Shown one piece after another: positions 8,423 through 63,965 of a stretch of 64,000 nucleotides of DNA. Origin of the DNA: a virus. Its lineage: Duplodnaviria; Heunggongvirae; Uroviricota; Caudoviricetes. The DNA lies in IMG/VR virus record IMGVR_UViG_3300047317_001031, positions 64,001 through 128,000 of that record, one strand, 5' to 3'. The notes under the pieces were generated by a model. The model worked only from the letters and a program-made list of their open reading frames with translations, ran no database searches and was not told the origin of the DNA. Numbering within the stretch: position 1 is the stretch's first letter; every line of letters begins with the position of its first letter. The translations under genes were made by a program, and so were the position numbers.

Positions 8423-9303
8423 ACCTACAGAAAATTCTTATTATTGGCGGAAGCGGGCAACTCGGAACCGCGCTCCGTGAAGTGTTCTCGGATAAGCAGA
8501 TTAAGTATCCGACGCATCAAGAACTTATGCTTAGTCTCGTTGATTATCCTGAAGACGGCGGAACGCCTTTCGAGAAAGCGATCCAAGGCGTTGATCTTGT
8601 TATCAACGCGGCAGCTTATCATAATGTACGTGAGTGTGAAGAAAACCCTAGCGTTAGTTTTCAGCTAAACGCTATCAAGGTCGGATACATGGCGAAGGCG
8701 TGTGCTAAACGCGATATGCCTTTCGTAACGGTATCAACGGATTATGTTTTTGAAGGCGAGAGGAGGGAATACTCCCCATATTCTCCTTGTAACCCGCTCA
8801 ACGTGTACGGTGTGTCCAAGTTGGCGGGAGAACACCTCGTATTGAATGCTAATTCGCGATCGACTATCATCCGAACTGCGGGGCTTTATGGGCCGAGCGG
8901 ATTCTCAGGGAAAGGCCCTCATTTCCTGGAACGCGTTCTTCGTATGACGGAATCCCGCGAAACGTTCCGAGCTGTGGATGATGTATTTTTCTCCCCGAGT
9001 TACGCTCCTTACGTAGCAACGGCCATGCGGGAGATAATCGAATCAGAAGATTACGGCGTTCGTCATGTTGCTGGCACAGGATGCGTTTCATGGTTTGAAT
9101 TCGCGAGATATGCTCGGTATGTTGCCTTTAGCGGAACGGCGTACGACATAGGAATTATTGAGCCGATCAAGATCGCAAGTTTGAACGAGCCGTTTACTCG
9201 CCCGGAAAAGGTTGATCTCGTTAGCAAAAAATCTTTTATGCCGCGATGGGAACGCGGAGTCGAAGAATACATACATCAACGATCTACAAGAAAGAATATG
9301 TGA
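8419..9303 (+). CDS. rfbD: dTDP-4-dehydrorhamnose reductase
   Basis: GGSGQLG, INAAAY, STDYVFEG, PLNVYGVSKLAGE. Confidence 0.92.
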   Translation: MNLQKILIIGGSGQLGTALREVFSDKQIKYPTHQELMLSLVDYPEDGGTPFEKAIQGVDLVINAAAYHNVRECEENPSVSFQLNAIKVGYMAKACAKRDMPFVTVSTDYVFEGERREYSPYSPCNPLNVYGVSKLAGEHLVLNANSRSTIIRTAGLYGPSGFSGKGPHFLERVLRMTESRETFRAVDDVFFSPSYAPYVATAMREIIESEDYGVRHVAGTGCVSWFEFARYARYVAFSGTAYDIGIIEPIKIASLNEPFTRPEKVDLVSKKSFMPRWERGVEEYIHQRSTRKNM

Positions 9304-58263: not shown

Positions 58264-58460
58264 TCCTTGAGCTCGTAAAGACATCCGATCAGGCATTCGC
58301 TGCGGCGGCGTTTATCGGTGATTGGATTTTAGCACATGGAGAAGATGGGCTTGGTGATCGCGCTTATTTCCAATCAAAGATGCTTGTCTTTAATCCAGAC
58401 TCAAAACTTGTCGGGGTCGTCGTGAAGGTAGGGATGGATCAATGGAGACTTCTCCAATAA
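58257..58460 (+). CDS. hypothetical protein
   Basis: Overlaps the methyltransferase stop. Confidence 0.45.
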   Translation: MLILELVKTSDQAFAAAAFIGDWILAHGEDGLGDRAYFQSKMLVFNPDSKLVGVVVKVGMDQWRLLQ

Positions 58461-58687
58461 AAATGAAGCGCGCGGAGAACCGGCATCAATGCGAACGAAG
58501 CAAGGGGCGATCGAAGCGCTTATGGGCTTTATGGAAATCTCGATCCATTGACGATATGGCGCCGAACCCTAAGCAAATTGGATTCTGGGCACGTACCCGC
58601 AAGCCGTGTTCTTGCTCCATGTGCGGGCATCAACGGAAATGGTTCGGGCCGAAGTTTTCCGAGATGCGGCATCTAGCGGAGGACTAA
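58442..58687 (+). CDS. small basic protein with PCSCxxCG motif
   Basis: RTRKPCSCSMCGHQRK; start may be 58463. Confidence 0.7.
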   Translation: METSPIKMKRAENRHQCERSKGRSKRLWALWKSRSIDDMAPNPKQIGFWARTRKPCSCSMCGHQRKWFGPKFSEMRHLAED

Positions 58688-58691
58688 GCAC

Positions 58692-59213
58692 CTGAGAAGT
58701 ACGGGACCATGCGATTTCTGCGGGACAAACCGAAACCTGCGCCCTTCCGATTGGAAGAAGGCCTCCCCCAAAATACATGCGCTTCGTCATCGCGACGGCG
58801 ACGATTGCTATTTATGTGATCTCCCGATACTTTTTGAAGTCCAGGAAAGGAATCCGTGCGCTCCTAGTGTTGAGCATGTCGTCCCGAAGTATCTCGGCGG
58901 GTGCTCTTGCCTATCGAATATAAAACTAGCGCATTATTTTTGCAATCATTGCAAGGGCGGAGGAACCGTAGAAGATTTTTTGCAAGGTAAAATTATCCAT
59001 GCGAGAAAATATATTCTTTGGGTTCTTGTGAATAGTACAAAGAAAACTGATCCGCGTCGCTCCGCATGGCTTATCGCTTCTAAAAGGAATGGAGAATCAA
59101 GAGGATCAAAGGCTTCTATTAAGAGAGAAGAACGCGCTAGGAGGATGTATGAAGGGCGAAATCTATCCGGGGCTATGGTCTTCGAAGTGGGATCATTGGA
59201 CGGGAAAAGTTAA
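58692..59213 (+). CDS. HNH endonuclease, probable CTG start (mostly missed by track)
   Basis: RDGDDCYLC...SVEHVVPK.LGG...SNIKLAHYFCNHCKG; frame open from 58677; GGAGGA 8 nt before CTG. Confidence 0.7.
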   Translation: MRSTGPCDFCGTNRNLRPSDWKKASPKIHALRHRDGDDCYLCDLPILFEVQERNPCAPSVEHVVPKYLGGCSCLSNIKLAHYFCNHCKGGGTVEDFLQGKIIHARKYILWVLVNSTKKTDPRRSAWLIASKRNGESRGSKASIKREERARRMYEGRNLSGAMVFEVGSLDGKS

Positions 59214-59277
59214 GGGCTTCGGTAAGCGATACATCCGGCGTTGGCAGCGGCGGAATGCGAATCGGGATAAGCAATGA
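59149..59277 (+). CDS. 42-aa Arg-rich peptide
   Basis: AGGAGG RBS; GKRYIRRWQRR; ATGA overlap with next gene. Confidence 0.65.
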   Translation: MKGEIYPGLWSSKWDHWTGKVKGFGKRYIRRWQRRNANRDKQ

Positions 59278-59585
59278 AGATCGCGATCAACACGCAATCC
59301 CCTGGAACCTTCGCACTATCCGATGAGGCCATGGATGAGATTCATAAACGCGGCCTTGATCTAGAACATGATGACTATTTCCTCTGCCGCGATGTTCGTA
59401 CTCATTCCATCGTTATTAAAGCGATAGAGTTGCTAGGGGATCAAGCGAATCGGAAGGATCTGTTCGGTGAACGCCCGATGTGCGAAATTAAGATCGTGGA
59501 AATTCCCGACGACGTAATCAACTGGTACATTATGGAAGACGATGCCGGCGTTGAGTCCATCCATGAAGGACGCATATGGAAATGA
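59274..59585 (+). CDS. conserved phage hypothetical protein
   Basis: F.LS.EA...IKIVEIPDDV.W.I.EDD.G.E.IHE. Confidence 0.8.
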   Translation: MKIAINTQSPGTFALSDEAMDEIHKRGLDLEHDDYFLCRDVRTHSIVIKAIELLGDQANRKDLFGERPMCEIKIVEIPDDVINWYIMEDDAGVESIHEGRIWK

Positions 59586-59839
59586 ATACGTACGATCCCA
59601 GGCATCTCCTGATAAAGGCATCCGAGCAATACGGGGAAGAATGGTGGAGCGATCCTGTTGATGCGGATGGGTCTTCCTTATGGGATAAGCGTCTTGCCCA
59701 TATGCGTCATCAGGCCTATATTGATCTATGGTCCCGATACCTTGAATTATATGTTCCCTATTTGAGGAAACTTCTGAAGAAGCATGGTCCGTTTCTCGCG
59801 TATCTTATGATGAGGGAAACTCAGCGTGCGAAAAAGTGA
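59576..59839 (+). CDS. hypothetical protein
   Basis: Operon-packed. Confidence 0.55.
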   Translation: MEMNTYDPRHLLIKASEQYGEEWWSDPVDADGSSLWDKRLAHMRHQAYIDLWSRYLELYVPYLRKLLKKHGPFLAYLMMRETQRAKK

Positions 59840-59963
59840 AGTATTCCCTGATTCCATGAACGTGTTCCCCGATTTCCCAAGTCCGCCTACAAAGCGTTGG
59901 TGCAAGCGCTACCGCTGCCGTTGGTTACGACGACGTGCAAGACGAAGCGTATTCTCAGATTAA
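59826..59963 (+). CDS. 45-aa Arg-rich peptide (not in track)
   Basis: GAGGGA 8 nt before GTG; KRWCKRYRCRWLRRRARR. Confidence 0.55.
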   Translation: MRKSEVFPDSMNVFPDFPSPPTKRWCKRYRCRWLRRRARRSVFSD

Positions 59964-59991
59964 AATCTTTGTTCGGAAATAAGAACAAGGC

Positions 59992-60021
59992 TTGACAAAA
60001 CATATGACGACAGGATACGCT
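59992..60021 (+). promoter_or_regulatory. promoter of tRNA array (TTGACA-N18-TACGCT)
   Basis: Perfect -35; ATG 6 nt after the -10. Confidence 0.7.
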
Positions 60022-60027
60022 CTAGGC

Positions 60028-60168
60028 ATGAGAACCGTAGGCATAGTCTCAGAACAGCCCAAGCCGTCCGCAAAAACAGCGGATTGCTTTAGCTATGCCC
60101 GCCAATCGTGGAATATTATGACCTTGAATTTCGGGAACACGCACGGTTGGAGCGGAACAGGCGGCTAA
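60028..60168 (+). CDS. leaderless codon-diverse leader peptide (46 aa)
   Basis: MRTVGIVSEQPKPSAKTADCFSYARQSWNIMTLNFGNTHGWSGTGG; 38 distinct codons. Confidence 0.7.
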   Translation: MRTVGIVSEQPKPSAKTADCFSYARQSWNIMTLNFGNTHGWSGTGG

Positions 60169-60232
60169 GTCGGAAGGTAGTCTCAATCAAGTTTGAGAGC
60201 ACCTCTCGGCAATAGCCGGGGGGTGTTTCTCT
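60169..60232 (+). terminator. attenuator: antiterminator 60169-78/60201-10 versus terminator 60200-10/60215-25 plus T-rich tail
   Basis: CACCTCTCGGC-AATA-GCCGGGGGGTG-TTTCTCTT; GTCGGAAGGT pairs 9/10 with ACCTCTCGGC. Confidence 0.75.
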
Positions 60233-60237
60233 TATAT

Positions 60238-60314
60238 GGGGTCGGATGCCGAAGCGTCGAGGCGCATGCCTGTGAAGCATGATCAAGCGGATTCGAGTTC
60301 CGCTCGACCCACCA
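60238..60314 (+). tRNA. tRNA-His(GTG), G-1 encoded, A73
   Basis: Cloverleaf; loop CTGTGAA; CCA. Confidence 0.92.
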
Positions 60315-60320
60315 AGTTTG

Positions 60321-60338
60321 AACCTTGAAAATTGAATA
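60321..60338 (+). promoter_or_regulatory. boxA-like antitermination element
   Basis: AACCTTGAAAATTGAATA resembles the rrn-leader CTTTGAAAACTGAA motif. Confidence 0.4.
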
Positions 60339-60350
60339 CGAAACAAAATC

Positions 60351-60442
60351 GCCTGCTTAATGTAACGATAGCATGGCCTGTTTGCTCATGGGATTCTCAT
60401 GCGCAAACAGGAGAGAGACGTTCAACTCGTCAGCGGGCGCCA
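60351..60442 (+). tRNA. tRNA-like RNA with a 20-nt insertion in the anticodon loop (identity unclear)
   Basis: 7-bp acceptor, D arm, T loop TTCAACT, CCA; anticodon arm extended. Confidence 0.6.
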
Positions 60443-60447
60443 ATTTT

Positions 60448-60536
60448 GGAGAGATGGCCGAATCAGGTAAGGCAACGCACTGCTAAGGCGTCGAGTCCGT
60501 AAGGATGTATGGGTTCAAATCCCATTCTCTCCGCCA
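60448..60536 (+). tRNA. tRNA-Ser(GCT)
   Basis: Long variable arm; G73; CCA. Confidence 0.95.
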
Positions 60537-60540
60537 ATAT

Positions 60541-60612
60541 GCCGGGGGTTCCAGTGAACAGCGAAGTCTCCAAAACTTCGCGCGCTCAGATCAGCACTGA
60601 GACCCGGTGCCA
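60541..60612 (+). tRNA. atypical tRNA-Trp(CCA)
   Basis: Loop CTCCAAA; 4-nt D loop, 7-bp anticodon stem, T loop ATCAGCA; CCA. Confidence 0.7.
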
Positions 60613-60613
60613 T

Positions 60614-60689
60614 CCCAGGATAGCTCAGACGGAAGAGCACTTGTTTGAAGCACAAGGGGTCGCGGGCTCGAAATCCGCTCCTGGGGCCA
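60614..60689 (+). tRNA. tRNA-Phe(GAA)
   Basis: Cloverleaf; G73; T loop CTCGAAA; CCA. Confidence 0.9.
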
Positions 60690-60708
60690 ATAAAATCGGA
60701 GAACATGC

Positions 60709-60888
60709 ATGACCGGAGATCGCACACGATACTTTCCGAGTATCCTGTACGTTGACTTGATTCAGTATATCGACTTCGCAACAACGAAACGATGGAAACG
60801 CCGTCGCGTTCGTCGGGATTCAAAGCGGTACACGCAAGAGGGGTCTGCGGAACTTGCGTGTGGGATATCGTCAACCTCGCAGCGATGA
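60709..60888 (+). CDS. 59-aa Arg-rich peptide inside the tRNA array (not in track)
   Basis: GGAGA RBS; KRWKRRRVRRDSKR. Confidence 0.55.
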   Translation: MTGDRTRYFPSILYVDLIQYIDFATTKRWKRRRVRRDSKRYTQEGSAELACGISSTSQR

Positions 60889-60911
60889 TCGCGAAAAATG
60901 CGAGGAAACAT

Positions 60912-60987
60912 ATCCCCGTAGCTCAGTGAATAGAGCGTCTGGCTACGAACTAGAAGGCCGCGAGTTTGATCCTCGCCGGGGATTCCA
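60912..60987 (+). tRNA. tRNA-Arg(ACG)
   Basis: Cloverleaf; CCA. Confidence 0.93.
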
Positions 60988-60991
60988 TAAC

Positions 60992-61065
60992 GGGGATGTC
61001 GCCAAGCGGCCAAGGCAATCGGTTTGCACCCGATCATTTCGAGAGTTCGAGTCTCTCCATCTCCA
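60992..61065 (+). tRNA. tRNA-Ala(TGC)
   Basis: G3:U70 present. Confidence 0.93.
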
Positions 61066-61078
61066 CAAGAAAGGGACT

Positions 61079-61255
61079 ATGATGATCGGCTACGGCGTCG
61101 AGAGACAAATCCCATGTTGCCCCGGCCATGACAAAACGGTATGGCCCGGTAACGCAAGACGTAAAAGAGAAACTGTAGAACGCTTACATCGTATCGCTAA
61201 AAAGCGCGGGCGACGTGAGGGGAAAAGACAAGTTGAAGAACAGATAAATGGATAA
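61079..61255 (+). CDS. 58-aa basic peptide with CCPGHD motif
   Basis: AAGGGA RBS; HRIAKKRGRREGKRQ. Confidence 0.7.
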   Translation: MMIGYGVERQIPCCPGHDKTVWPGNARRKRETVERLHRIAKKRGRREGKRQVEEQING

Positions 61256-61259
61256 TCAT

Positions 61260-61333
61260 TCCTCGCTCGTTCAAAGGTAGGACGGCTGGTTGTTACCCAG
61301 CGAATCGGTGTTCGAGTCACTGGCGAGGAGCCA
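61260..61333 (+). tRNA. tRNA-Asn(GTT)
   Basis: Cloverleaf; G73; CCA. Confidence 0.95.
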
Positions 61334-61339
61334 ATCTTC

Positions 61340-61414
61340 GTGCGCGTGAAGGGAATCGGTATACCTCCGTCGCTTAAAACGATGGGCTTGCAAGTTCGAG
61401 GCTTGTCGCGCACA
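61340..61414 (+). tRNA. tRNA-Leu(TAA), short variable loop
   Basis: Loop CTTAAAA; A73. Confidence 0.88.
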
Positions 61415-61419
61415 TTATT

Positions 61420-61797
61420 CTAGATAACCCCAAACTGATTCTTCACTTCTTGAAGTTGTTTCCCAATCTCCTCAATAATTTCGTCTTTAAGGCCGATTTG
61501 AAAATGAAGGGCATTGACGATACGGCCTCGCTCCTCAAGTAGCGCGTCTAAGAGACGAAACGTGTCTTCTTTAAGGGAAATAATTTCTTGTTGAGAAGAA
61601 ATTGTTTGCTTGTTCGCAGAAATGGTCTCTTCCAATAATGCCAAATGCGTAATAAGATCATCGTTTGATTTGAGTATATCTTCCCCCGTCTTAATCGTAT
61701 CTTTTAATATGTTGTTTGTTTTTACGAGAAAGTAATAATTCCCGATCCCATACATGAGAAGAAGAACCATGACCGAAACGATGGAGATTTCGTACAT
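61420..61797 (-). CDS. TM plus coiled-coil protein antisense within the tRNA array
   Basis: N-terminal TM helix, heptad pattern; occupies a tRNA-free gap. Confidence 0.6.
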   Translation of the reverse strand: MYEISIVSVMVLLLMYGIGNYYFLVKTNNILKDTIKTGEDILKSNDDLITHLALLEETISANKQTISSQQEIISLKEDTFRLLDALLEERGRIVNALHFQIGLKDEIIEEIGKQLQEVKNQFGVI

Positions 61798-61860
61798 GCG
61801 AGAATAGTTCGTACAAGGGATGCCCGATCCTATCGAGGATATGATGAAATTAGGAAGCAT

Positions 61861-61934
61861 GCTCCACTAGCACAATTGGTAGATGCAGCGGATTCAAGTC
61901 CCGCGTGTTCTCCGTTCGAGTCGGAGGTGGAGCA
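61861..61934 (+). tRNA. tRNA-Leu(CAA), short variable loop
   Basis: Loop TTCAAGT; A73. Confidence 0.88.
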
Positions 61935-61941
61935 TAATCTT

Positions 61942-62016
61942 CTCGGTGTAGCAGAGCGGTACATGCGGCAGGTTTAGGCCCTGCGTCTTCGGGAGGTTCG
62001 AATCCTCTCACCGAGA
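61942..62016 (+). tRNA. tRNA-Leu(TAG), short variable loop
   Basis: Loop TTTAGGC; A73. Confidence 0.9.
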
Positions 62017-62019
62017 TAT

Positions 62020-62094
62020 GGGGATGTAGCAGAACGGTATATGCGCTACCTTGAGGAGGTAGGTCTCTTGCTGGTTCGAGTCCAGTCTTCCCCA
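62020..62094 (+). tRNA. tRNA-Leu(GAG), short variable loop
   Basis: Loop TTGAGGA; A73. Confidence 0.9.
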
Positions 62095-62109
62095 TTTGAC
62101 AAAATACAT

Positions 62110-62188
62110 GAGCGGATGCGTGAGAGGTTGAAACGGATGGGCTGTAACCCCATTGGAAACCGCGTTGGTTCGAATCCAACTCCGCTCA
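62110..62188 (+). tRNA. tRNA-Tyr(GTA)
   Basis: Loop CTGTAAC; 10-nt variable arm. Confidence 0.92.
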
Positions 62189-62195
62189 TATTCCA

Positions 62196-62267
62196 CTCCC
62201 AGTAACTCAGTGGTAGAGTGCCTTCCTCATAAGAAGATCGGCGCATGTTCGAATCATGCCTGGGAGA
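62196..62267 (+). tRNA. tRNA(CAT): Met or Ile2
   Basis: Loop CTCATAA; no initiator features. Confidence 0.85.
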
Positions 62268-62271
62268 CTAT

Positions 62272-62344
62272 GCGAGAGTATATCAGTTGGCAGATAGTTT
62301 CCCTCATAAGGAAAAGGTCGGCGGTTCAATTCCGCTCTCTCGCT
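62272..62344 (+). tRNA. tRNA(CAT): Met or Ile2
   Basis: Loop CTCATAA. Confidence 0.88.
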
Positions 62345-62856
62345 CTTTCCATTGCGCGTTGCCAAACTCGTCCGCATAATACTTGAGAAGCGTGATGCGG
62401 CGTAACATTGTAATATCTCGCGATTACACCAACTCTTACACCTGCTGCACGTTTTTCAAACATCTCTAAAACTTGCTTCTCCGTGAGTTTCGAGGATTTA
62501 TGGTTCTCACCACAAGCGATAGATGCATCTGGCATCTTCATGCCTCTAGTATAAAAAAGTCTTCCTTTATCGCGACAATCTATCATGTTTGCGCTTGGCG
62601 TTCCGCTAAAAAGATGAAGCGGATTCACGCAAGAAGGATTATCACACGTATGGCATACAAAAAGTGATGGATCAATCCATCTTCCCCTATGTAGGGCCAA
62701 AGAAACTCGGGTTGCTTGATAGAGTCTCCCCTGAATTTTTATTCGACCATATCCATTGGATGTTGCTCTCCGCCAAATCCAGCATTCTCCTACGACGATA
62801 TATGCACGATTGAAATTTTCACGTAATGCGTCCGTAATAATAAATGGAATTTCCAT
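62326..62856 (-). CDS. HNH homing endonuclease, antisense in the tRNA array
   Basis: GECWIW...GYG...VCHTCDNPSCVNPLHLFSGT..AN; C-terminal KLTE..V HTH. Confidence 0.9.
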   Translation of the reverse strand: MEIPFIITDALRENFNRAYIVVGECWIWRRATSNGYGRIKIQGRLYQATRVSLALHRGRWIDPSLFVCHTCDNPSCVNPLHLFSGTPSANMIDCRDKGRLFYTRGMKMPDASIACGENHKSSKLTEKQVLEMFEKRAAGVRVGVIARYYNVTPHHASQVLCGRVWQRAMERARERN

Positions 62857-62910
62857 GTGTTAATTTTCTCACGCAATTAACAAAGATGTCAACACGTTGC
62901 TTTTCACTAT

Positions 62911-62987
62911 CGAGATGTAGTTCAGCTTGGTAGAACGCCGACTTCGGGAGCCGGAGGCCGCAGGTTCGATTCCTGTCATCTCGACCA
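62911..62987 (+). tRNA. tRNA-Pro(CGG)
   Basis: C1-G72, A73, CCA. Confidence 0.95.
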
Positions 62988-62997
62988 TTTCTTTTAC

Positions 62998-63073
62998 GCC
63001 GACGTAGCTCATGTGGTAGAGTACCGCCCTTGTAATGCGGATGTGATCGGTTCGAGCCCGATCGTCGGCTCCA
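62998..63073 (+). tRNA. tRNA-Thr(TGT)
   Basis: Cloverleaf; CCA. Confidence 0.93.
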
Positions 63074-63078
63074 ATCAT

Positions 63079-63152
63079 CGAGGAGTGGTGTAACGGTAAC
63101 ACGGGTGCTTTGGGAGCATTTGATCGGAGTTCAATTCTCCGCTCTTCGACCA
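63079..63152 (+). tRNA. tRNA-Pro(TGG)
   Basis: C1-G72; CCA. Confidence 0.93.
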
Positions 63153-63168
63153 TTTATCCGCCGTCGTA

Positions 63169-63234
63169 GGGACCGTGGCGCGGATGTATACATGGCTGCA
63201 TAAGGCGCGTCGAGTGCAGTGCAAAACGGTCTCA
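63169..63234 (+). ncRNA. unassigned 66-nt RNA with acceptor-like closing stem
   Basis: GGGACCGT/ACGGTCTC stem flanked by tRNAs; no cloverleaf. Confidence 0.4.
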
Positions 63235-63237
63235 CTT

Positions 63238-63313
63238 GTCGGTGTAGTTTAGCGGCCAAAATCGGTGACTTTTAATCACCTTATCGTGGGTTCGAGTCCC
63301 ACCACCGACCCCA
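63238..63313 (+). tRNA. tRNA-Lys(TTT)
   Basis: Loop CTTTTAA; CCA. Confidence 0.92.
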
Positions 63314-63319
63314 ATCTTT

Positions 63320-63392
63320 ACCCCCGTAGCGAAACGGATAACGCATCCCTTTCCTAGAGGGAAGATACTCGGTTCAATTCCGAGCGGGGGTT
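63320..63392 (+). tRNA. tRNA-Arg(CCT)
   Basis: Loop TTCCTAG. Confidence 0.93.
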
Positions 63393-63414
63393 CATCATCA
63401 AGGAGAAGATAGAA

Positions 63415-63471
63415 ATGTGTGAACATGGCGTTGCCGTTCATGTCCCTTGCGTGGAGTGCGAATCACAATAG
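63415..63471 (+). CDS. 18-aa Cys/His micropeptide
   Basis: AGGAG RBS; MCEHGVAVHVPCVECESQ. Confidence 0.45.
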   Translation: MCEHGVAVHVPCVECESQ

Positions 63472-63486
63472 CTCCGCGCTTCATAA

Positions 63487-63560
63487 TCCCGAGTCGTCTA
63501 ACGGTAGGACGGAACCCTCTGAAGGTTCTTATCGGTGTTCGAATCACTGCTCGGGAGCCA
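63487..63560 (+). tRNA. tRNA-Gln(CTG)
   Basis: U1-A72; G73; CCA. Confidence 0.95.
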
Positions 63561-63564
63561 ATTC

Positions 63565-63638
63565 GCGCGGGTAGCCTAGTGGATTCAGGCATCGAGCTTC
63601 TACCTCGAACGACGGGAGTTCAAATCTCCCTCCGCGCT
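63565..63638 (+). tRNA. tRNA-Arg(TCT)
   Basis: Loop CTTCTAC. Confidence 0.93.
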
Positions 63639-63641
63639 CAT

Positions 63642-63712
63642 TCCGGGTTCGGCTAATGGTAAGCCGATGGTTTTTGGTACCATCTATCGGAGTTCGAGTC
63701 TCTGGCCCGGAG
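63642..63712 (+). tRNA. tRNA-Gln(TTG)
   Basis: U1-A72; G73. Confidence 0.92.
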
Positions 63713-63716
63713 TCAT

Positions 63717-63790
63717 GCACCCGTAGTTTAGTGATAGAATTCCTGATTGGTATTCAGAGGGCGCGGTTTTGATTACCGCCGGGTGCTCCA
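63717..63790 (+). tRNA. tRNA-Thr(GGT)
   Basis: Loop TTGGTAT; CCA. Confidence 0.9.
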
Positions 63791-63814
63791 TCTTTCACGA
63801 TATAATTGCTTCAT

Positions 63815-63892
63815 GCTTCCGTAGCTCAGTTTGGTAGAGCGTCTCATTCGTAACGAGAAGGTTCATCGGTTCGATCCCGATCGGAAGCTCCA
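63815..63892 (+). tRNA. tRNA-Thr(CGT)
   Basis: Loop TTCGTAA; CCA. Confidence 0.93.
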
Positions 63893-63893
63893 T

Positions 63894-63965
63894 GCGTTCG
63901 TGGCCTAACGGACAAGGCGACAGTCTTCGAAATTGTTGATGGCGGTTCAACTCCGCCCGAACGCT
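63894..63965 (+). tRNA. tRNA-Arg(TCG)
   Basis: Loop CTTCGAA. Confidence 0.92.

Follow-up and report, generated by a model that had tools for sequence, protein, structure and literature searches.

Small arginine-rich reading frames at a phage tRNA array: at least three lineages by sequence comparison, two of them with a bias towards tRNA regions

The 64,000-nucleotide stretch analysed here (the window) covers positions 64,001 to 128,000 of the IMG/VR virus record IMGVR_UViG_3300047317_001031, a member of the Caudoviricetes, and makes up the latter half of a complete, circular phage genome of 128.8 kb with 51% GC and a 127-bp terminal repeat. A large tRNA array begins near its end, and five short open reading frames (ORFs) for basic peptides, with isoelectric points of 10.3-11.4, lie at and inside the start of the array. 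Each is named here by its first position. ORF 58442 (58442..58687) encodes 81 residues and has a second possible start, an ATG at 58463. ORF 59149 (59149..59277, 42 residues) carries an AGGAGG site, and its stop overlaps the next start as ATGA. ORF 59826 (59826..59963, 45 residues), the last gene of the upstream run, has a GTG start and a GAGG site. The other two lie between tRNA genes, as the sequence-only reading had noted: 60709 (60709..60888, 59 residues, GGAG site) between tRNA-Phe and tRNA-Arg(ACG), with its stop 24 nt before the tRNA, and 61079 (61079..61255, 58 residues) between tRNA-Ala and tRNA-Asn, with its stop 5 nt before the tRNA. That reading had also described all five as equipped with ribosome-binding sites; they were recovered on the + strand with the motifs it had quoted, and all five passed a Shine-Dalgarno (SD) filter. 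Of the five, 60709 and 61079 alone would be co-transcribed with the tRNAs, because the other three end an upstream run that is closed by a hairpin at 59967-59990. A codon-sensing leader role was considered and rejected, since every one of the ORFs is a coding frame that is conserved or of full length, and none has a called terminator after it.

The five peptides had been taken for one family with a shared basic helix. By profile and pairwise comparison, they are instead at least three unrelated lineages, and the set consists of two members of phage families that are known but uncharacterised, that of 61079 (family A, PHROG 5428/6713) and that of 58442 (family B, PHROG 4499 or T5.055-like), together with an orphan pair or trio. 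The profiles of families A and B aligned to each other with an hhalign value of 0.2% (positive control, 100%), and cross-profile scores stayed at or below 5.5-5.8 bits. ORF 58442 did not emerge as kin of the other four in pairwise comparisons (p 0.1-0.6), and no homology beyond composition joins all five. The part of the shared helix that stands is a basic stripe, which four of the five ORFs carry in register (K/H-R, x3, R/K, x2, RR, x2, K/R/N), but the motif quoted for 58442 is a Cys knuckle and not a helix. The stripe pattern was defined post hoc, after viewing the ORFs, and occurs five times in the six frames of the genome, four of them within the 2.8-kb cluster; its RxxRRxxK spacing recalls the motif of the N peptide. 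The basic helix may be shared through convergence, or through an ancestry too remote to show.

ORF 61079 belongs to family A by its CCPGHD core, its N-terminal YG, its C-terminal basic helix and an independent profile. A profile built from other CCPGHD proteins matched it at 40.2 bits (E 8e-11), with the next six-frame match in the genome at 10 bits. Its likeness to PHROG 5428/6713, a family of 129 representatives at 50% identity, extends from an N-terminal M-x-x-YG through the CCPGHD core and an aromatic-Pro to the basic helix, in a length of ~55-65 residues. The copy is nevertheless divergent; it lacks the usual linker Tyr and Ser, and its single-sequence PHROG scores are weak, at ~21 bits. 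The AlphaFold2 model predicts a disordered N-terminal segment of 21 residues, including CCPGH, followed by one helix at 22-56 (35 residues, predicted local distance difference test (pLDDT) >90).

ORF 58442 belongs to family B by its PCSCxMCG knuckle, its N-terminal basic helix and its profile score (phrog_4499, E 2.9e-14; 54.9 bits against a leave-one-out profile). The alignment with its homologues begins at the second ATG (58463). The relatives include T5.055-like genes in >200 T5-like and Erwinia phages (including Agricanvirus), and the family B profile matched 1198 clusters; among the clusters listed, all are unnamed or hypothetical save one with an automatic "rubrerythrin" label. In common with PHROG 4499, the window's copy has the invariant CSCxxCG, the downstream Arg and the N-terminal basic helix in a family of ~75-85 residues, often found within tRNA regions or at their edges. 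It differs in that His replaces the usual Asn and the Pro of the GNPR motif is missing. AlphaFold2 places helices at 2-24, 36-44, 57-61 and 66-73; in this model a basic helix of 23 residues is followed by a shorter helix, then by the Cys knuckle and by a tail predicted with low confidence (C-terminal pLDDT ~55). In a T5-like phage the family B gene follows the last tRNA at a distance of ~0.9 kb. We also observed a family B gene together with an HNH gene in a 16-tRNA array on an Acidithiobacillus chromosome contig (L311:2120-6016).

Judged on conservation, families A and B are functional genes. The dN/dS ratio (nonsynonymous to synonymous substitution rate), computed on relatives and not on the window's own copies, was 0.05-0.35 in family A (4 pairs) and 0-0.28 in those family B pairs that were not saturated. 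Both families also conserve the spacing between motif and stop, and the invariant residues of family B are CSCxxCG and a following Arg. Homologues and purifying selection are thus in hand for the families of 58442 and 61079, but no outside homologue was found for 59149, 59826 or 60709. Even for the first two, single-sequence searches of a word-indexed protein database returned nothing, and motif scans and profiles were required. Our searches turned up neither a Pfam model nor a solved structure nor a published function for family A or B, and no paper on them or on T5.055. Fold searches gave no informative structural match for the peptides, including no match at Z ≥5 for the 58442 model.

Among the orphans, 59149 and 59826 are reciprocal best matches within 3077 six-frame ORFs (score 55; block-shuffle p<0.001) and are probably paralogues. 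ORF 60709 scored 39-41 against these two (p 0.008-0.013), a level that other ORFs also reach, and is perhaps a third paralogue. None of the three appears to be a CCPGHD protein: they lack the Cys-His core, score 3-7 bits, and gave block-shuffle p values of 0.04-0.23 and an hhalign value of 0.6%. Homologue searches, which have low power at 40-60 residues, found none in GenBank phages, PHROG, Pfam, NCBIfam or PADLOC, in ~620 loci or in 35 large phage records. A scan of viral DNA for KRYxxRWxRR yielded 56 matches and 0 short homologous ORFs, and the ESM Atlas, queried with 60709 only, gave no usable match. No close relative of the phage was found, and the other assemblies that hold these genes are 100% identical. 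The indications that the orphans may be functional genes, from which we infer their translation, are indirect: the SD sites, the ATGA overlap of 59149, their mutual similarity, and the automatic calling of 59149 and 60709 as genes in public assemblies of the same phage.

The clustering proposed for the basic ORFs held up as above chance, in a region that was picked post hoc. Short SD-bearing ORFs outside long genes were filtered for at least 7 Lys or Arg in a 15-residue window. Nine of 101 such ORFs passed genome-wide, and 4 of these 9 lie within the 2.8 kb (hypergeometric p about 0.003-0.005). Near the arrays of other phages, by comparison, 136 short ORFs yielded 7 that pass the same basicity filter. 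The local concentration of basic ORFs is unusual.

Enrichment near tRNA genes was then a matter of the two families with homologues. A tRNA gene lies within 2.5 kb of 6 of the 27 non-redundant viral loci of family A and 13 of the 69 of family B, as compared with 2 of 76 random viral sites (2.6%) and 4 of 62 loci (6.5%) of a matched accessory family, that of the gene at 59274. For A and B together, 19/96 (~20%) against 4/62 gives a p of 0.015, and at least 3 tRNAs within 2.5 kb were found at 13/96 loci of A and B against 1/62 of the matched family (p 0.007). All 19 of the tRNA-near loci are on the tRNA strand. Metagenomic family B loci were near a tRNA in 8 of 51 cases, and two bacterial copies, picked only because their contigs are long, flank tRNA clusters. 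The expected enrichment near tRNA arrays is therefore real, about threefold over a matched accessory gene and on the same strand, but it is modest and most members lie elsewhere. The genes are biased towards tRNA regions and are not fixed components of the arrays. The co-occurrence with RtcB that had been suggested as a check did not appear: RtcB is absent from this genome and from the top 25 neighbour families.

The array itself is extensive. ARAGORN made 36 tRNA calls genome-wide, 35 of them in a single array, which begins in the window and crosses the circular junction; the part in the window spans 60240..63965 on the + strand with 24 ARAGORN calls. At its start, 60240-60311 is a tRNA by Rfam that ARAGORN did not call, 60350-60441 is an atypical tRNA called as "undetermined", and ~60541-60612 is a tRNA-shaped stretch called by neither program. 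A lone tRNA with anticodon CTA (ARAGORN label Pyl) lies ~6 kb beyond the array, at genome positions 8703-8777. The upstream side of the array holds a DnaB helicase, an HNH protein and an intein-containing methyltransferase. Between 58442 and 59149 runs an HNH endonuclease frame (58677..59213, + strand; PHROG HNH matches to E 2e-10) with no ATG, GTG or TTG ahead of the HNH core, the nearest ATG, at 58709, being in another frame; this suggests a frameshift, an unusual start or decay. It is followed by the gene at 59274..59585 (+ strand), which encodes a 103-residue acidic accessory protein of PHROG 16527, the family used as the matched control for tRNA proximity. The 8-bp hairpin at 59967..59990 (+ strand), identified by folding and sequence, stands right after the 59826 stop and is followed by TTGACA at 59992, where a consensus scan missed the promoter owing to a weak -10. 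Hairpin and TTGACA probably set the tRNA transcription unit apart from the genes upstream. Ahead of the array follow a leader ORF of 46 codons and, at 60197-60228, a hairpin resembling a terminator (together 60028..60228, + strand, from sequence), so that TTGACA, leader and hairpin before the first tRNA (59992-60228) make up a candidate attenuator.

Protein genes are interspersed in the array. Several HNH endonucleases and a metallophosphoesterase are present, and two minus-strand genes inside the array encode a membrane-anchored coiled-coil protein (61420-61860; weak Rz-like match, E 0.001) and an HNH endonuclease (62326-62856). Outside the window in the same array (L630:1144-1392), an ORF of 82 residues with a GGAG site and a C-terminal basic helix has its TAG stop inside tRNA-Val(GAC) (1383-1454); 5' processing of this tRNA would leave a non-stop mRNA, an ArfA-like layout. 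This ORF has no PHROG or Pfam match and scores 6 bits against the family A profile. Directly downstream of the array (L630:2300-8205) are Ro60/TROVE, RlaP, NadM-NUDIX and NAMPT. Repeated elements containing GCCGGATG precede this block, and one of them scores as a YrlA-like RNA at 38.5 bits, below the gathering score. The complete genome has no match to RtcB (PF01139) or to the ATP-grasp RNA ligase PF09414.

Then, what could have brought unrelated basic genes together at this array? The explanation that we favour, tentatively and with less than even confidence, is that they encode independent arginine-rich RNA-binding microproteins, metal-anchored in two of them, which act on rRNA or tRNA and are gathered in an island for translation support and counter-defence; the binding, its target and the benefit to the phage are what we infer. 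Each ORF is predicted to form a strongly basic helix. In families A and B the Cys/His cluster (CCPGH and CSCxxC, respectively) probably binds a metal and would pin a short loop, and the arginine-rich helix could then fold onto a groove of structured rRNA or tRNA of the host translation apparatus, so that the ORFs might aid phage translation under stress. The ORFs would gather here because the array is such an island, with its tRNAs, Ro60, YrlA-like RNA, RlaP and NAD-salvage enzymes. The Cys/His and Arg positions that are invariant across the 129 (A) and 1198 (B) clusters speak for this explanation, as do the low dN/dS ratios of both families, the confidently predicted helix of 61079, the same-strand excess near tRNAs and the gene content downstream of the array. 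A general RNA- or ribosome-binding role is plausible.

Likenesses to known ribosomal proteins are partial. Phages are known to encode bS21 (PMC9723584, PMC6375957), and the peptides resemble phage bS21 and single-helix proteins of the bS22/eL41 type in size and in having a long basic helix. Membership of bS21 or bS22 was rejected: 28 members of family A and 60 of family B gave no bS21 or bS22 match in Pfam at E up to 1 and none among PDB sequences at E up to 10, and the single helix of 61079 gave no informative fold match. At one IMG/VR locus (L006) with a 22-tRNA array and a family B gene, we noticed by eye a bS21-like ORF within 1 kb of a tRNA. Family B has in addition a CxxCG(N/R)P(R/H) knuckle that aligns with uS14 (PF00253) over ~19 columns (hhalign 22%, pairwise P 0.001), and 2 of 60 members match PF00253 at E down to 0.006. 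Family B does not appear to belong to uS14, however, as only the first knuckle aligned and the best score was 10.5 bits against a cut-off of 27; two features of uS14, the second pair of Cys and the conserved tail at the C-terminus, are absent, and the global alignment was not significant. The apparent resemblance to the rRNA-binding knuckle of uS14 is a lead only.

Several points weigh against the RNA-binding explanation. The loci behind the proximity statistics (p 0.007-0.015) are not phylogenetically independent, and ~80% of the A and B members have no tRNA within 2.5 kb. Among the matches listed, several phages with 9-28 tRNAs hold the gene 28-75 kb from them, and family A occurs in one complete phage that lacks tRNAs. 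No recurring translation or RNA-repair family was found among the 103 and 133 neighbouring ORFs, A and B co-occur in 0 of 46 other records, and among solved RNA-binding proteins neither family has a clear counterpart in structure or sequence. A basic helix is equally suited to binding DNA or acidic proteins. The strongest competitor, which we consider quite possible though somewhat doubtful, is that the ORFs are hitch-hikers: ordinary accessory genes for DNA- or host-protein-binding peptides, unrelated to tRNA function, which accumulate where arrays serve as insertion or recombination hot spots with strong promoters; the three orphans could be young genes under little constraint. The remoteness of most homologues from tRNAs and the heterogeneity of their neighbours fit this explanation, as do the HNH endonucleases and the metallophosphoesterase in the same array, the 6.5% of loci at which a non-basic control family reaches tRNAs, and the fact that three of the five ORFs precede the hairpin and promoter and stand apart from the tRNA unit. 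It accounts less readily for an enrichment that survives the matched control, for a clustering of basic ORFs above chance and for the strict conservation of the Arg and Cys positions.

The counter-defence side of the island can also be read on its own, with the ORFs as peptides that bind an anticodon nuclease, or shield tRNA, against this and other translation-targeting defences. The nearest parallel is the tRNA-rich region of T5, home of the Rad gene, where small ORFs are interleaved with many tRNAs; its ORF75 counters the retrons Eco2 and Eco7, its tRNA-Tyr counters Eco7 (PMC11555353), and a T5 tRNA-Lys counters PARIS (10.1101/2024.01.02.573894). The family B gene at the edge of the tRNA-rich region in a T5-like phage agrees with such a role, as do Ro60, RlaP and NAD salvage, which are counter-defence functions in large phages; Ro60 and RlaP are carried by large phages for RNA repair (PMC7824862). 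Families A and B differ from the T5 genes in having no known anti-defence activity and no similarity to any named protein, and in a fragment screen of the T5 tRNA-rich region rescue came from ORF75 and tRNA-Tyr only, the presence of the family B gene in the fragments not being established. The peptides are moreover basic, and the nucleic-acid-mimic inhibitors known to us are acidic. We regard this role as quite unlikely.

Back-up ribosome rescue of the ArfA/BrfA type, in which the peptide would enter the empty mRNA channel and recruit a release factor, is very unlikely. Size and charge are suitable, the likeness to ArfA and to the C-terminal tail of ArfB lying in being short and basic, and tRNA cleavage would yield stalled ribosomes to act on. 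The sequence-only reading had drawn this parallel, together with that to bS21 and bS22, and all four analogies fail on the defining features of the proteins concerned. No ORF matches the ArfA profile (PF03889) or has a KGKGSY-type motif; none contains the GGQ of the ArfB domain, and the release-factor domain PF00472 has no match anywhere in the genome. The non-stop gene layout of ArfA and BrfA, judged by cleavage at tRNA genes, is missing as well: all five ORFs have stops of their own before any tRNA, a stop inside a tRNA was found at 0 of 27 loci of family A and 2 of 69 of family B, and the length from anchor to stop is conserved. Slighter still is the chance that the peptides are antiterminators like lambda N, whose arginine-rich motif has been described (PMC11480772), binding a hairpin to let RNA polymerase pass a terminator before or within the array; the RxxRRxxK stripe and the hairpin and terminator-like element ahead of the array suit this idea, but the peptides are half as long as N, four of the five have the basic helix at the C-terminus, no N-family profile matches, and most homologues lie away from arrays.

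Nothing here shows a new mechanism. If the RNA-binding explanation is carried to its full extent, several unrelated metal-anchored arginine-helix microproteins would be ribosome or tRNA binders in large tRNA-carrying phages, family A as a single-helix rRNA clamp and family B as a uS14-like knuckle mimic, and together with an attenuator-gated array and Ro60-YrlA-RlaP they would sustain translation when host anticodon nucleases fire. We consider this extended form unlikely, yet if the clamp and the mimic are real, phage translation factors would gain two new classes, one of them encoded by the model phage T5. Should the binding to ribosomes or tRNA alone be true, the short list of phage translation factors would be extended; if not, these are ordinary accessory genes and the cluster is a curiosity. 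For families A and B, the same-strand bias towards tRNAs is the first positional clue that we found. The T5-like coliphage copy of family B makes the role of small ORFs in phage tRNA regions testable in E. coli.

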